Shown: in pieces, positions 1 through 63,897 of the stretch | How positions within the stretch are numbered: position 1 is the first letter of the stretch | How the letters are laid out: each line of letters opens with the position of its first letter | Source of the DNA: an uncultured Bacteroidia bacterium | Lineage (GTDB): Bacteria > Bacteroidota > Bacteroidia > J057 > CALLMJ01 | DNA: 64,000 bases | Direction of reading: 5' to 3' | NCBI GenBank assembly: GCA_938005475.1 | Contig: CALLNY010000003.1 | Span: forward strand, 2,540 to 66,539 | The notes under the pieces: model-generated | Database searches by the model: none | Told to the model about the DNA's origin: nothing | The model's input: the letters and a program-made list of their open reading frames with translations, nothing else | Translations under genes and position numbers: made by a program

Positions 1-153
1 AATCCCGACGGAATAATTAAGCATGGCTCCAGCGGAAAAATTATATTAACCAAAAAACTAAAATCAATTTATTTAGTCCCCCAGAAATCTACCTTTGAAA
101 TTCAGGATAAAGTATTTATTTATGCTGTAAAATCTGATAGCACACTTTATTAG
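1..153 (+). pseudogene. 3' remnant of an RND efflux periplasmic adaptor (membrane-fusion protein); 5' part lies outside the window and the C-terminus is missing
   Basis: Frame 1 reads NPDGIIKHGSSGKIILTKKLKSIYLVPQKSTFEIQDKVFIYAVKSDSTLY then TAG at 151-153. This resembles the distal segment of AcrA/HlyD-type adaptors but ends roughly 50-70 aa short and abuts pump residue ~19. Confidence 0.5.
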
Positions 154-1714
154 GATTACTAGCTTTGTTTCAGTTGCCAATTACTCAATACCCAGATATT
201 GCTCCGCCAGAAGTAGATGTCACCACCAAATATACAGGAGCGAATTCAGAAACCTGTGTTAAAGCGGTTGTAACTACATTCCTACTGGCTTTATCCCCGA
301 AGAAGACCAAGGAACAATCTATGCCAATATTACTACTCCCTCCGGCGCAACCTTAGAAAGAACCGAGCAAGTCGTTGATGAAGTACAAAAAATTGCTTTT
401 AAGTTAGAAGCCGTGAATTCTGTTTCTAGTATGTCGGGATACAGTATCTTATCCGAAGGAGTGGGGGCTATCTACGGTATGAACCTTATTTCCTTAAAAA
501 ATTGGAAAGAACGTAAAGAAACTGATAAACAAATCATTGAAAAACTAGAATCATTAGTAGCTCATATTAAAGATGCTCAAATTGAATTTTTTAGACCACC
601 CCCTGTCCCCGGTTTTGGTAATTCCAGTGGTTTTGAATTAAGACTCCTAGACCAAACAGGTACTAATGATTTCACTAAATTTAAACAAGTTACCGATGAT
701 TTTATTAAAAAATTAAATGAAAGACCTGAGATTAGTAACGCTTTTACTACTTATGAGCCTAACTTTCCACAGTATTTAGTTCAGATAGATTACGACAAAG
801 CGGCTACAAATGGAATTACTGCAAAGGATGCTTTAAGCACATTACAAACCCTAATCGGTAGTGAATATACAACCAATTTTATTCGTTTCGGGCAATTATA
901 TCGCGTAATGGTACAATCCGCTCCAGAATACCGAACCAAACCCGAAGATATCTTTAAATTCTACATCAAAAATAAAGAAAGAGTTATGGTGCCTTTTTCT
1001 TCGTTCGTTACTCTAAAAAAAGTTTATGGACCTGAACAAATAACGCGTTATAATATGTACTTGTCAGCTATGGTGAAAGGGCAACCCGCAAAAGGCTACA
1101 GCTCAGGTGACGCTATTGAAGCTATTAAAGAAACCGCACAAAAGTTCCTTCCTAAAAGTTATGGTTATGACTGGGCTGGTGCTACCCGCGATGAAGCTAA
1201 TGCAGGTAATAAAGCCATTTTTATTTACTTAATCTCTCTCGTTTTTATTTATTTATTGCTTGCCGCTCAATACGAAAGTTTTAAGTTACCTTTCCCTGTT
1301 CTTTTATCTTTACCTTTCGGAGTTTTAGGAGCTTTCTTATTTTTGTGGCTTTTTGGCCTACAAAATAATATCTACGCCCAAGTTTCTTTAATTATGTTAT
1401 TCGGAATTTTAGGGAAAAATGCCATTTTGATTGTAGAATACGCAGTATTAAAACAAAATCAAGGTCTAACTCCTTACCATGCTGTTGTAGAAGCCGCAGT
1501 TGCAAGATTAAGACCTATTCTAATGACCTCTTTTGCTTTCGTTGCTGGGCTTATTCCTCTAATGATTGCTACCGGTGCCGGCGCCATCGGCAATCAAACG
1601 ATAGGCTCCGCCTCCGCTGGTGGTATGACCGTCGGTACAATTATCGGTGTGATTTTTATTCCTAGTTTATTTTTGATATTCGCTAAAAAAAATAAAAAAA
1701 GAAAAAGTTACTAA
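144..1714 (+). pseudogene. RND (AcrB/HAE1-type) efflux permease with no start codon and a ~500-codon internal deletion
   Basis: nt 144-277 encode LLGLLALFQLPITQYPDIAPPEVDVTTKYTGANSETCVKAVVT, matching AcrB ~19-64 as recalled. From nt 278 a different frame reads IPTGFIPEEDQGTIYANITTPSGATLERTEQV..., matching AcrB ~563 onward, and continues through the C-terminal half (AAQYESFKLPF, GKNAILIVEY, RLRPILMTS) to the stop at 1714. Confidence 0.8.
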
Positions 1715-1716
1715 TT

Positions 1717-3150
1717 ATGAAAAACTTAATCACTTACAAACCTTTTCACAAACTTACTCTCCTTTTAATTTGTCTTGTGTTATACAGTTGTAACTTGAAT
1801 ACAGAGCTAAATCTCTCTAAAACTCGTTTTGATAACCTTGTTCCCTTCGCTAATTCATCTAATAATATCGGACAACTTTCTTACAAAGATTTTTCCAAAG
1901 ATGAATTCCTTAATCAACTCATTGATAACGCCCTAAAAAATAATTTTGATTTGCAAATTGCTGTACAAAAATAGAAACCTTCAGAAGCCAATTCATAGCA
2001 AGTAAAGGGCTACTCTACCCTAAAACAGAACAAAATATTAGTCTCGCATTGAGAAAATATGGGCTTTACACGATGGACGGTGCCGGCAATATTACGACTT
2101 TCATTGAACCTAATAAAATTGTTCCTACTCATTTGCCTGATTTTTTGTTGGTTTTCAATCTCAATGGGAAATTGATATATGGGGAAAACTGAAAAATCAA
2201 AAAAAGCCGCTTATCAACAGTTACTAGCTTCAGAAGACGCTAAAAAATGGGTCCAAACACAACTTATTTATGCCATTGCAATCCTTTATTATGAACTTCT
2301 AAGTTTAGATTATGAAATCGAAACCGCTAATCTAACCCATGAAAAACAAAAAGATGTCCTACAAATTATTCATTATCAAAAAGATGCAGGTAAGATAAAT
2401 GAATTAGTGGTAAGCCAATTTGAAGCTCAACTTTTAGGTATTCAAATCCTAAAAAATCAACTAGAACAAAAAAGTAAAGACATAGAAAATCAAATTTTAT
2501 TTTTATGTGGTAGTTTACCTCAAAATATTCGTCGCAATAAAAATGTACTCAACCAAAATTTCAATGTAGATTTAAATATTGGAAGCTACGAACAATTCCT
2601 TCAACAAAGACCCGATATACAAGAAGCCGATAAGCTATTACAAGCCTCTCAATTTCAATGGATAGCATCAAAGAAAGCTTTTTTCCCTTCCTTGAATTTC
2701 ACTAGTTTCGCCGCATCACAAGCTTTCCGTTTAAATTTACTTTATTTGTTTCCAGCTTCCTTAGCTTATTCGTTGTTTTCTTCCTTCTCTACCCCTTTAA
2801 TTAATCGAAACAATTTAAAAGCCCTATTTTTATCTTCAAAATCTCAAGTTTTTCAATCTTTTTATTACTACCAAAAAATTGTTTATCAAGCCTATTATGA
2901 AATAGCAATTGTTTATTTCTTCCTGAATAAACAAAAAGAAATTGTAGAATTCAGCGAAAAACAGAGAGATAAACTTAATCAATCCGTAGAAATTTCTAAA
3001 GAACTTTACAAAACTGGAGAAGCAACTTATTTAGAAGTACTACTCGCTCAACAAAATGCGTTAAATGCTCAAATCAATTTGATTGAAGAAAAGAAAAAAC
3101 TTAAAATTGCAGAATGGAACCTCTACAAATGTTTAGGAGGAGGAAGATAA
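1717..3150 (+). pseudogene. Efflux outer-membrane factor lipoprotein (NodT/TolC family) broken by three 1-nt frameshifts
   Basis: Lipobox LVLYSC at the N-terminus. ORFs 1717-1974 and 2179-3150 join through two intermediate frames if one base is restored in each run: A 1967-1971, T 2141-2146, A 2199-2205. The restored text contains WEIDIWGKLKNQKKAAYQQ. The reconstructed protein is about 479 aa. Confidence 0.8.
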
Positions 3151-8349: not shown

Positions 8350-8444
8350 AAAAAAGCAAGAGCGATATCGCACTGCTCAACCTGGTGCCGTTGCTTCCTT
8401 CCGGACCTGGCGGAGTGACCAAGGAACTGTCGTATCGCCTTGCA
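8350..8444 (-). ncRNA. ffs: Signal recognition particle RNA (small bacterial 4.5S type)
   Basis: Minus strand reads ..CCGCCAGGUCCGGAAGGAAGCAACGGCACC.., the conserved domain IV with GGAA tetraloop. Terminal helix GCAAGGCGAUA / UAUCGCUCUUGC is followed by a U-tract. A TAATTTTG box lies 5 nt upstream of the inferred 5' end. Confidence 0.88.
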
Positions 8445-8448
8445 TCTG

Positions 8449-8528: not shown

Positions 8529-9617
8529 TTAATTTTTTGAACCAAATTCCATTAAATAAGCTTTAATGAACTCATCCAGCTCTCCATCCATAACAGCCTG
8601 TACATTAGAAGTTTCAACGTCTGTTCGTAAATCTTTGACCAATTTGTAAGGATGAAATACATAATTACGAATTTGAGAGCCCCATTCAATTTTCTTTTTA
8701 GAGGACTCTAATTTGGCTTTTTCGGCTTGTCTTTTTTCTACTTCAAGTGCATATAAACGGCTTTGTAATAGTTTAAGAGCTTTATCACGATTTTGATGTT
8801 GAGAACGTTCCTGTTGGCATTCTACAATGATACCCGTAGGTATATGTTTCACCCTTACTGCGGACTCGGTTCTATTGACATGTTGCCCCCCTGCTCCACT
8901 CGCTCGGAAAGTGTCCCACTCTAAATCTGCGGGATTGATTTCTATTTGTATATCCGCATTCACTAATGGATATACAAACACCGATGCAAAAGAAGTATGG
9001 CGCTTTGCGTTAGCATCAAATGGAGAAATCCTTACTAAACGGTGAACACCCGTCTCAGATTTTAAATACCCATAAGCAAAAGCTCCTTCAATTTCTAAAG
9101 TTGCACTTTTAATCCCCGCTACATCCCCTGCCTGCTCGTCTATCATAGAAACTTTATATCCATGTTTTTCTGCGTACATAATATACATTCGCATCAACAT
9201 TGCCGCCCAGTCTTGCGATTCCGTTCCCCCTGAACCCGCATTAATAGTAAGTATACAACTCAATGAATCCTCTTCTTCGGAAAGCATATTCTTAAATTCT
9301 AATTCTTCAAGTGCTTTCAATGTTTGGTGATAATACTCCTCTAATTCTTTTTCTGGCATGTGCCCAGTTTCCCATAATTCCTTCGCAACCTCTAATTCTT
9401 CATATAAACTCTGTACTTTCTTATAAGCTTCTGTCCATATTTTAAGGGAAGAAATTTGTTTTAAAATAGATTGAGCCTCCTCAGGATTGTCCCAAAAAGC
9501 TGGTCCTAATGTTATATCTTCTAATTCTTTAATTTTTTCTTCTTTCTCCTCTATTCTTAAATAATTTTTTAATGCCTGTACTCTATCCTGAATTTCCTTG
9601 AATTGTTCTACATTCAT
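8529..9617 (-). CDS. prfB: Peptide chain release factor 2, encoded in one uninterrupted frame
   Basis: SPF tripeptide (RISPFDA) and GGQ motif (SGAGGQHVNRTESAVR). Full length at 362 aa. Confidence 0.95.
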   Translation of the reverse strand: MNVEQFKEIQDRVQALKNYLRIEEKEEKIKELEDITLGPAFWDNPEEAQSILKQISSLKIWTEAYKKVQSLYEELEVAKELWETGHMPEKELEEYYHQTLKALEELEFKNMLSEEEDSLSCILTINAGSGGTESQDWAAMLMRMYIMYAEKHGYKVSMIDEQAGDVAGIKSATLEIEGAFAYGYLKSETGVHRLVRISPFDANAKRHTSFASVFVYPLVNADIQIEINPADLEWDTFRASGAGGQHVNRTESAVRVKHIPTGIIVECQQERSQHQNRDKALKLLQSRLYALEVEKRQAEKAKLESSKKKIEWGSQIRNYVFHPYKLVKDLRTDVETSNVQAVMDGELDEFIKAYLMEFGSKN

Positions 9618-25166: not shown

Positions 25167-25223
25167 AACCTTTTAACACAATCTTTTGTTCGTATACAAA
25201 AATTATTTCCAATTTTGTTGTTA

Positions 25224-25925
25224 ATGAAAGAAATTATTAGGCTTGAAAATATTGTAAGGTCGTATGTGATGGGGGATGAAATTATTTACGCCCTCCGCGA
25301 CATTTCATTAAGAATATATCAGAACGAGTATGTAGCTTTTATGGGACCTTCGGGGTCCGGGAAAACTACCTTGATGAACATTTTAGGTTGTTTAGATACT
25401 CCAACTTCGGGTTCTTATATTCTGAACGGAAGTTTAGTAAGTGAAATGGAAGATGCGGAATTAGCAAGAGTTAGAAATAAAGAAATTGGATTTATTTTTC
25501 AGTCTTTCAATTTATTACCTAAATTAACCGCATTAGAAAATGTAGCCTTACCTTTGGTTTATGCAGGGATTCCATTGAGAGAACGAATAGAAAGAGCTAG
25601 GCAAGCCTTAATCAGTGTAGGTTTAGAACATCGATTAGACCATAAGCCTAATGAAGTCTCTGGGGGACAAAGACAAAGAATAGCTATCGCAAGAGCGTTA
25701 GTCAATAATCCTTCTATCCTTTTAGCCGATGAACCGACTGGAAATTTAGATTCTAAAACCTCCTATGAAATTATGGCTTTATTTGAAGAGCTTAATCAGA
25801 AAGGAAATACTATCATCTTGGTAACCCATGAAGAAGATATTGCCCAGTATGCTAAACGTATTGTTCGTTTACGAGATGGAATAATTGAAGCGGACGAGCA
25901 AAAAGTAGTCACTATTAGTAGATAA
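25224..25925 (+). CDS. ABC transporter ATP-binding protein (MacB/LolD-like subgroup)
   Basis: Walker [11 protein letters not shown]-loop, signature SGGQRQR and Walker [13 protein letters not shown]. Start moved to [10 protein letters not shown]. Confidence 0.9.
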
Positions 25926-25940
25926 CAAAAAGTTTTTTTT

Positions 25941-25948
25941 TATTTTTG
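25941..25948 (+). promoter_or_regulatory. -7 promoter box (TATTTTTG)
   Basis: Exact TAnnTTTG 18 nt before the ATG at 25966. Confidence 0.45.
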
Positions 25949-25965
25949 CGGGCATATGTTTAAAT

Positions 25966-27042
25966 ATGTCTATGCGAAAAGCACTTCATTTAGGATTAAT
26001 TTGTTTTTTTCTTTTAATGTTTATGTTGGAGGAAGCTGAGGGTCAGATTTTTCCACAGTTAGGAGCACAACGAGCAGGTATTTCTGCGTTAACTTTTTTA
26101 AAGATAGACAGTAGCCCACGAGCGGCGGGGATGGCAGGTTGCCAAGTTGCTGTAAATGGGGATGCTTACGCAACTTCTTATAACACTGCCGCATTAGCAG
26201 ATAATGAACAAATCTTTTTTGCAGGTTCTAATACTTTTTACGTAGCAGGAACTAACCACGCTTTTTTCTCTGCTATGGTACCAAATGCAAGACTAGGAAA
26301 TTTTGCTTTACATGCCACTTCCTTTACTACAGGCGCCATGGAAAGAAGAACCGAACTACAACCCCTAGGTACCGGTGAATTTTTCTATGCCTATAATGTC
26401 GCAATAGGAATAGCTTACGCTAAAAAATTAACCGAAATGTTTAGTTATGGAATTTCTTTAAAGTATATCAATGAAACTTTAGACCGTTTCGTAACTCATA
26501 CCGCCGCACTAGATTTAGGCTTCTTATACAGAACCGATTTTAAGGACCTAAAATTTGCTGTAAGTTTACAGAACTTCGGTCCTAATAGTAAATTGAAAGG
26601 CAATAAGCCAATTACACCGTTTATGAAAGCCCCAAAAGCATTAGAAAGTAATCCCTCTCCCACCCATTTTAGTTTAGGGATTTCTATGATCCCTATCAAA
26701 AATGAAAAACATCAACTTTTAACGGCTATTCAACTAAATCACCCTAATGACAATGCAGAAAATATTCGTTTAGGCGTTGAATACGGATTTAATCAATTTC
26801 TCTTTTTTAGAACAGGCTATAAAATTAACGTAAAAGACCAGCCCTATCCTACTTTTGGACTAGGCATTAAAAGCCGTTTCGGTAAACATCCTCTAATGAT
26901 AGATTATGCATTAGACCCTACGCTTTATTTAGGATGGATTCATAGAATTGGATTAAGTTTGTTTATTAACAAAGATGCAAGAGAAGCCTCTTCCGATAGT
27001 AACCCTGAAAATAAATCAAAAAAAAACCAAGAAAATCAATAA
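25966..27042 (+). CDS. PorV/PorQ-family outer-membrane beta-barrel (T9SS-associated family, tentative)
   Basis: Signal peptide, then GISALTFLKIDSSPRAAGMAGCQVAV..YNTAALA, which resembles the N-terminal signature of PorV/PorQ-type barrels. Confidence 0.5.
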   Translation: MSMRKALHLGLICFFLLMFMLEEAEGQIFPQLGAQRAGISALTFLKIDSSPRAAGMAGCQVAVNGDAYATSYNTAALADNEQIFFAGSNTFYVAGTNHAFFSAMVPNARLGNFALHATSFTTGAMERRTELQPLGTGEFFYAYNVAIGIAYAKKLTEMFSYGISLKYINETLDRFVTHTAALDLGFLYRTDFKDLKFAVSLQNFGPNSKLKGNKPITPFMKAPKALESNPSPTHFSLGISMIPIKNEKHQLLTAIQLNHPNDNAENIRLGVEYGFNQFLFFRTGYKINVKDQPYPTFGLGIKSRFGKHPLMIDYALDPTLYLGWIHRIGLSLFINKDAREASSDSNPENKSKKNQENQ

Positions 27043-53306: not shown

Positions 53307-53328
53307 CCAATTCGGAGTATGGAATGAA

Positions 53329-53514
53329 TTATTTTTTTTCTTCCGTAGCAGAAGTTTCCTTTTCTATTTCATTTTTTATTCCGCTGGCGGCATCTTTAAA
53401 TTCTCTTATGCCTCTACCTAAACCCCTTGCAAATTCCGGGATTCGTTTTCCCCCGAAAAATATCAGAACTACTACCAATATTAAAATAATTTCTGTTGTG
53501 CCAAGTCCAAACAT
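53329..53514 (-). CDS. tatA: Twin-arginine translocase subunit TatA/E
   Basis: 61 aa with N-terminal TM and the [21 protein letters not shown] amphipathic-helix signature. Confidence 0.9.
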
Positions 53515-53534
53515 AAGACTACCAAATTAAAAGG

Positions 53535-53542
53535 CAAAGTTA
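53535..53542 (-). promoter_or_regulatory. -7 promoter box (TAACTTTG) for tatA
   Basis: Exact TAnnTTTG on the minus strand 21 nt upstream of the ATG at 53514. A candidate TTG lies at 53561-53563. Confidence 0.45.
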
Positions 53543-53802
53543 ATAACAAAAAATCATCTTCAAAATCAAATTATCAATTTTATTACAAACAAATTTTGAT
53601 TACCTTTTTACTAAGCAGATGGATAACTATTATAAAATCATCAAAAATTAATCAGATTTTTCATATAAGGCTACTGAGTGCCAAAACGTGAACGCTGAAT
53701 TCAACGTCATTTTGATGGTCGCAACACGCACTAGTGTTACACTTGCAATTTACATTTAAGCATCATTTAATCAAACCTTTTTTCAAAATAATTACAAAAA
53801 AC

Positions 53803-53833
53803 TTGCATAGTAAATAAAAAAATATTACTTTTG
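53803..53833 (+). promoter_or_regulatory. Promoter: -33 TTG (53803-53805) and -7 TACTTTTG (53826-53833)
   Basis: Exact TAnnTTTG with a TTG 20 nt upstream, 33 nt before the ATG at 53867. Confidence 0.5.
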
Positions 53834-53866
53834 CACTTGCATTAAATCAAATTTAATTTTTGAGAT

Positions 53867-63537: not shown

Positions 63538-63544
63538 ATAAAAA

Positions 63545-63892
63545 CTAAAGCGGTAAGCCGGGTTCTGTATTAGGTTATCATTTATCTAAAATGCTTTTTA
63601 CAAATACATTTTAAGCGACCTACCCACTGGCATCAGGCGAGCTACCTTCAAGCGCCAGCCTATTTGGTCTTGCGGCTTCTGAGGTTTGCCCTGTAAGTTA
63701 GTCACCTAACCTACACGTGGTCTCTTACACCACGATTTCACCCTTACCTATTCTTCATAGGCGGTATGTTTCTGTTGCACTGTCTGTTACTTAACATTGC
63801 TGATAAGCACCTTGCCGTTAGCAAGCAGAATGCTCTACGCCGCCCGGACTTTCCTCTGATAGTTCTATCTACCAGCGATAACCCCGCTTTAG
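63545..63892 (-). ncRNA. rnpB: RNase P RNA (bacterial type A)
   Basis: Minus strand contains GAGGAAAGUCCGGGCGGCG (P4 5' strand) and ACAGAACCCGGCUUACCG (P4 3' strand). P1 pairs CUAAAGCGG (63892-63884) with CCGCUUUAG (63553-63545). A TAATTTTG box lies about 5 nt upstream of the 5' end. Confidence 0.9.
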
Positions 63893-63897
63893 TACCA

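Follow-up and report, generated by a model that had tools for sequence, protein, structure and literature searches.

A probable relic of an MFP-RND-OMF efflux operon with a triply frameshifted outer-membrane-factor gene in an uncultured Bacteroidia bacterium

The window, by which is meant the whole 64-kb stretch of DNA that was analysed, comes from an uncultured Bacteroidia bacterium of free-living type with ~33% G+C. Greedy ORF tiling placed 58 ORFs of at least 90 aa in it, a coding density of 91%, and the genes present include those for methylmalonyl-CoA mutase, citrate synthase, a TonB-dependent receptor, T9SS substrates and PEPCK; it is because of this gene content that the organism is regarded as free-living and not as a reduced endosymbiont. 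A PorV-like outer-membrane protein and a protein of 661 aa with a Por_Secre_tail domain, the C-terminal sorting domain of the T9SS, indicate a type IX secretion system, which fits an origin in the Bacteroidota. The small SRP RNA and the class A RNase P RNA were both located (Table 1), no tRNA genes were found in the 64-kb window, and two ORFs of 322 and 192 aa gave no Pfam match at E <= 1e-3. The prfB of many bacteria contains a programmed +1 frameshift; the release factor 2 gene of the window is a single ORF without one. At the beginning of the window lies the locus of interest, in which remnants of genes for a membrane fusion protein (MFP) and an RND pump precede a gene for an outer-membrane factor (OMF) whose reading frame is broken three times.

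The breaks in the OMF gene coincide with an A5, a T6 and an A7 run, all within 240 bp, which were read from the sequence and verified by a scripted check. The ORF that begins at 1717 is closed by TAG 1972-1974, the frame that follows the first run is free of stops until TGA 2190-2192, and ORF 2179-3150 has returned to the phase of 1717, the start positions modulo 3 running 1, 0, 2, 1. Addition of one base to each of the three runs produced, again by scripted check, a stop-free ORF of 1437 nt or 478 codons, the translation of which could be aligned with nine intact homologues with zero gaps across all three junctions (alignment A1). Because the repaired protein aligns gap-free through the junctions, each lesion is taken to be the loss of 1 nt inside a homopolymer. 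The positions and lengths of the runs and the frame steps 1 to 0 to 2 to 1 given in the first-pass annotation were borne out base for base, and its claim that one restored base per run rebuilds an OMF protein was upheld by the 478-codon ORF, the gap-free alignment and the survival of the WE.D.WGKL block. It had also been proposed that the three frames cancel back to the original one. As arithmetic this is correct (the sum is -3), but it has no biological consequence, because any three -1 events give that total and the stops at 1972 and 2190 bar read-through; functional compensation by a net change of -3 was rejected on account of these stop codons in the intermediate frames. The gene therefore has no uninterrupted frame, stops following frameshifts 1 and 2 at 1972-1974 and 2190-2192. 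The 945 nt of its 3' remainder, however, are still without stops in the strain of the window.

Table 1. Position and basis of the features located in the window
Feature	Position	Strand	Basis and details
MFP remnant, residues 262-310 of the relative's 366	1-147	+	tblastn; upstream part outside the window
RND N-terminal remnant, residues 31-70 of 1042	177-296	+	tblastn, 85% identity; Pfam ACR_tran profile 28-64
RND C-terminal remnant, residues 561-1039, ORF 413-1714	269-1714	+	tblastn, 87% identity; ACR_tran profile 595-1020 of 1021
Strain-variable A7 run in RND remnant	1009-1015	+	A6 in L026 and L027, remnant split into 209 + 219 aa (multi-strain alignment, gene calls)
OMF (NodT/OprM-type lipoprotein) pseudogene	1717-3150	+	478 codons after 3 bases restored; homology and Pfam
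Lipobox L-Y-S-C (LVLYSC), Cys25 invariant	1780-1791	+	Alignment A1
Frameshift 1: A5, probable ancestral A6 (CAA AAA ATA)	1967-1971	+	L029 has CAA AAA ATA; same in five assemblies
Frameshift 2: T6, probable ancestral T7 (GAT TTT TTT GTT)	2141-2146	+	L001 has GAT TTT TTT; same in five assemblies
Frameshift 3: A7, probable ancestral A8 (CAA AAA AAA GCC)	2199-2205	+	L029 has CAA AAA AAA GCG; same in five assemblies
Strain-variable T6 run in OMF gene	2679-2684	+	T7 in L026 and L027, fourth OMF frameshift; 3' ORF split into 175 + 134/152 aa
Small SRP RNA	8350-8446	-	64.6 bits
Release factor 2 gene	8529-9617	-	TIGR00020 (prfB), 522 bits, profile 2-353 of 353, SPF motif; one 362-aa ORF
PorV-like outer-membrane protein	25966-27042	+	
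Protein with Por_Secre_tail, 661 aa	53867-55852	+	T9SS C-terminal sorting domain
ORF, 322 aa	48239-49207	+	No Pfam match at E <= 1e-3
ORF, 192 aa	57120-57698	+	No Pfam match at E <= 1e-3
Class A RNase P RNA	63538-63895	-	265 bits

The homology of the repaired protein goes far beyond chance. Its best match in the protein database had E = 4e-216, the Pfam family OEP (PF02321) was recovered as two repeats (6e-24; 85.3 bits against a gathering cut-off of 22), and the profile TIGR01845, 'efflux transporter outer membrane subunit', was matched end to end (5e-52, profile positions 54-460 of 460). The TIGR01845 cut-off of 210 bits was missed by the repaired OMF, which scored 177.2 bits, and cleared by P0003 with 242 bits. 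The shortfall is a trait of the clade and no mark of decay, since the intact relative P0001 also falls short with 189.4 bits. This protein is the nearest intact relative, with 71% identity, and comes from a MAG of an uncultured Bacteroidia bacterium (loci L001 and L002) in which an intact MFP-RND-OMF operon encodes proteins of 366, 1042 and 523 aa; the 523-aa call (L001, 7810-9381) carries an N-terminal extension of ~45 aa that is unique among the homologues, and its start was probably mis-called. Solved structures matched by the repaired OMF are those of OprM (1WP1), SilC (9RMM) and CusC (3PIK), OprM being covered over residues 37-449 at E = 1e-37. The blocks GLYTMDGAGN and WE.D.WGKL, which are invariant among the homologues, are both kept, and a lipoprotein signal with an invariant lipobox cysteine is present. 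Like the NodT/OprM-type OMF lipoproteins, then, the gene product shows end-to-end homology, two OEP repeats and lipobox Cys25, and the gene is placed downstream of MFP and RND, but unlike them it has its reading frame broken three times. The OMF of the window and its relatives form a divergent clade: their identity to other OMFs of Bacteroidota and Gammaproteobacteria is 42-46%, and those others are 51-75% identical to one another. The gene belongs to the OEP/NodT family as a divergent member and has become a pseudogene in textbook fashion.

The state of the partner genes was established by tblastn, in which the MFP and RND proteins of the nearest intact relative were searched against the window and against further assemblies of the locus, for the MFP protein L025 and L026. 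The MFP gene is without residues 165-225 and 311-366, and from the RND gene residues 1-30 and 71-560 are gone, the ~1.47 kb coding for the latter having been deleted; the N-terminal and C-terminal RND remnants stand in different frames. The first reading of the sequence had mentioned 'gross deletions' in the adjacent pump gene; these are real, and remnants of both partners of a tripartite operon lie directly upstream of the OMF gene. At its 3' end (1685-1700) the RND remnant retains a Lys-rich tail, AKKNKKRKSY, encoded by an A8 and an A7 run that are still in frame; these runs are likely to be the next sites of slippage. Judged from the sequence, positions 1-3150 of the window appear to be the relic of an MFP-RND-OMF efflux operon, the OMF frameshifts forming one part of its decay. 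A caveat that must be applied is that OMFs can serve several pumps, so that the loss of its cognate MFP and RND is by itself no proof that the OMF was dispensable.

In each of the three lesions a homopolymer is shorter by 1 nt, the classic signature of under-calling, and it is conceivable that the gene is intact and that A6, T7 and A8 were simply read as A5, T6 and A7. The same locus was retrieved from other assemblies by exact-protein look-up. Two of these are metagenome assemblies from ENA, L025 (ERZ6863697, a 54.6-kb contig) and L026 (ERZ6863929, a 62-kb contig), and two are Logan assemblies, L027 of ERR9287890 and L028 of ERR9287625; that short reads were assembled is suggested by contig numbers that run into the millions. 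Compared with the window they show 0-2 SNPs and 0-2 indels over 2.5-13 kb, or ~99.97% identity, and because these SNPs and indels set them apart from the window they count as independent consensus sequences. Counting the window there are five assemblies, produced by two pipelines from no fewer than four samples, and A5, T6 and A7 are present in 5/5. A comparison of run lengths in sister strains had been put forward at the outset as a check, and its outcome, the same three lengths in four further assemblies, is the reproduction of lesions that a genuine pseudogene should show.

The remainder of the window points in the same direction. Its other ORFs contain 635 A/T runs of at least 5 that are in frame, 91 of them of at least 7 and 24 of at least 8, and among runs of at least 5 the proportion contracted was 3/23 in the OMF gene against 0/635 elsewhere (Fisher p = 3.7e-5). 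The first-pass annotation had argued from longer runs that stay in frame in intact genes; the general point is sustained by these counts, but two of the examples given, A8 and A7 at 1685-1700, belong to the truncated RND remnant. No second split gene was found among the overlapping or adjacent ORF pairs checked (47638/48239, 50654/51792 and 34627/35426), which are distinct genes, and the only sizeable gaps in coding, at 25213-25965 and 53307-53866, are apparent ones, being occupied by an ABC ATPase ORF and a TatA-like ORF. Decay or error spread across the whole window was accordingly ruled out. Under-calling is thus very improbable: the run lengths agree in five assemblies that differ from one another by SNPs, 635 other runs including 24 of at least 8 are in frame, and deletions on the kilobase scale in the neighbouring genes are impossible to produce by base-calling error. 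The reading favoured from the beginning, real relaxed selection as opposed to erroneous base calls, gains support from the shared run lengths, the intact state of the other genes, the partner deletions and the extra frameshifts of a sister lineage described below. The population may still contain a minor intact OMF allele; searches of the protein database, the GTDB representative genomes and JGI metagenome contigs returned no closer intact orthologue or allele between 71% and 100% identity.

Codon alignment with intact orthologues allows the ancestral state of the runs to be reconstructed. At site 1 L029 (FWPV01027990.1) has CAA AAA ATA, an A6 run, and at site 3 CAA AAA AAA GCG, an A8 run, while site 2 is represented in L001 by GAT TTT TTT, a T7 run. 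The A8 and T7 runs exceed all other homopolymers of the repaired gene, none of which is longer than 6. Replication slippage, that is slipped-strand mispairing, would have removed 1 nt each from the ancestral A8, the T7 and one A6, and the clustering of the lesions within 240 bp would be explained because the slippage hot spots lay there.

Strain variation was found to be concentrated in the same genes. Two runs differ in L026 and L027, one in the RND remnant that has lost a base and one in the OMF gene that has gained one (Table 1); these changes at 1009-1015 and 2679-2684 occur jointly in two assemblies that come from different samples, and they fit the proposed slippage. The relic accounts for 24% of the length compared but contains 5/7 of the strain variants (binomial p = 0.011). 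Two of the three relic SNPs are radical replacements, K186I and K335E, and the flanking variants outside the relic consist of one synonymous change and V242I. Relaxed constraint is evident from the partner deletions, the two additional frameshifts in L026 and L027 and the enrichment of variants in the relic. Outer-membrane proteins are common targets of phase-variable switching, and tracts that act as contingency switches, turning the protein on and off, would be a possible reading of three contracted runs in such a gene, the more so as two other runs of the relic vary between strains. However, the three tracts themselves are invariant in five assemblies, their joint reversion would be needed, all three are short, and the two runs that do vary merely add inactivating lesions, one of them in an RND remnant that is already truncated. 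Phase variation is for these reasons extremely unlikely.

The amount of divergence in the OMF gene bears on the time of its inactivation. Six private substitutions at otherwise invariant columns were counted in the repaired OMF against 1-7 in intact homologues, so that there is no excess, and it stands as far from the outgroups as the intact relative does. Over the 79 codons now shifted out of frame, the ancestral third codon position accounted for 30/46 differences from L001 and 27/51 from L029, compared with 24/48 for the intact pair L001/L029. Long-term relaxed selection on the OMF amino acids, which was considered, is not seen in these substitution and codon-position counts. Since amino-acid conservation and the bias towards third codon positions both persist, the inactivation is recent, and nearly all of the divergence of the OMF was built up under purifying selection. 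The inactivation is later than the split from relatives with CysRS 87-90% identical and earlier than the diversification of the sampled strains. One such congener is L091, a Logan contig from ERR9287890, the run that also yielded L027, with a CysRS 90% identical and the same CysRS-QueC order; no OMF orthologue of L091 was found.

A protein so well conserved raises the question of whether the OMF is still expressed in spite of its lesions, either through transcriptional slippage that inserts one A or U per tract or through three successive -1 ribosomal frameshifts. After the deletions site 2 reads T_TTT_TTG and site 3 A_AAA_AAG, both in the phase of a -1 slippery heptamer, and at site 1 an AAA stands directly before the TAG without any X_XXY_YYZ heptamer. 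Together with a protein sequence that is still fully conserved, these features are what speaks for rescue. The heptamers, however, are by-products of the deletions, because a codon-aligned run that loses one base yields them automatically, and downstream of sites 1-3 no stimulatory RNA structure above shuffled controls was found (z = +0.54, -0.08 and +0.51). The likeness to dnaX-type programmed -1 frameshifting is confined to the in-phase A_AAA_AAG of site 3 and T_TTT_TTG of site 2; unlike that system there is no downstream hairpin, the shift is absent from the orthologues and the heptamers are products of the lesions themselves. The orthologues, L001 and L029 among them, are single ORFs without a frameshift.

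Rescue at the level of transcription has been reported where poly(A) tracts are long or runs reach about 9 (PMC5009743), and insertions during transcription rise exponentially with run length, with frame-restoring events not seen even in Buchnera (PMC5574713). Against a threshold of about 9 nt or more drawn from these two papers the present tracts measure 5, 6 and 7 nt. The OMF gene resembles the cases of poly(A) rescue in Buchnera and Blochmannia (reviewed in PMC5009743) in that frameshifts lie in A/T homopolymers of an otherwise conserved protein gene, but it differs from them in its tracts of 5-7 nt, in having three lesions instead of one and in the deletion of its partner genes; moreover its frameshift is absent from divergent relatives and its host is no reduced endosymbiont. 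The tracts are too short for slippage and a stimulatory structure is missing, which makes rescue by this route very unlikely. The probabilities of three low-efficiency events would also have to be multiplied, intact relatives do without a frameshift, the partner genes are destroyed, the sister lineage adds a +1 frameshift farther downstream and the gene content is that of a free-living organism. Of even lower probability is a specific form of it, in which small amounts of full-length OMF arise from a P-site slip on AAA followed by slips on T_TTT_TTG and A_AAA_AAG, or from the equivalent events by RNA polymerase. Were it true, the channel would stay open to other pumps, which would account for the perfectly kept protein sequence. 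The two alternatives that the first-pass annotation had left standing, under-calling and transcriptional slippage, are therefore largely closed.

It is very probable, then, that the locus is a recently inactivated MFP-RND-OMF relic in which the OMF gene, an ordinary pseudogene, was broken by three independent 1-nt slippage contractions. Either the loss of the pump or the first frameshift would have come first, after which the remaining lesions would have been neutral and have become fixed. Translation from ATG 1717 would now end at TAG 1972, and no full-length OMF would be made. A different cause of the inactivation would be that loss of the OMF and pump was itself selected, for example as an escape from a phage or toxin that uses a TolC-like channel. 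The inactivation is very recent, complete in three genes and fixed in all sampled strains, as adaptive loss would have it, but the data do not tell selection from drift, and multiple redundant lesions are what is expected of neutral decay after a first hit. Adaptive loss is accordingly considered unlikely, if less so than artefact, rescue or phase variation.

The probable pseudogene has much in common with those that arise by slipped-strand mispairing in A+T-rich bacteria, namely that its longest A/T runs carry 1-nt indels, that the genes next to it have large deletions and that further lesions are specific to strains. It departs from them in that the rest of the window is undegraded: within it the loss is that of a single operon and not genome-wide erosion. 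The finding is an ordinary one and has little import beyond annotation, where one pseudogenised MFP-RND-OMF efflux operon should take the place of four or five small 'hypothetical' or partial genes. The case may also help to calibrate the distinction in MAGs between genuine frameshifts and errors of homopolymer sequencing. The locus offers a clean example of early operon decay, in which the first point lesions struck the longest homopolymers and are common to all sampled strains, with new indels segregating in a sister lineage.
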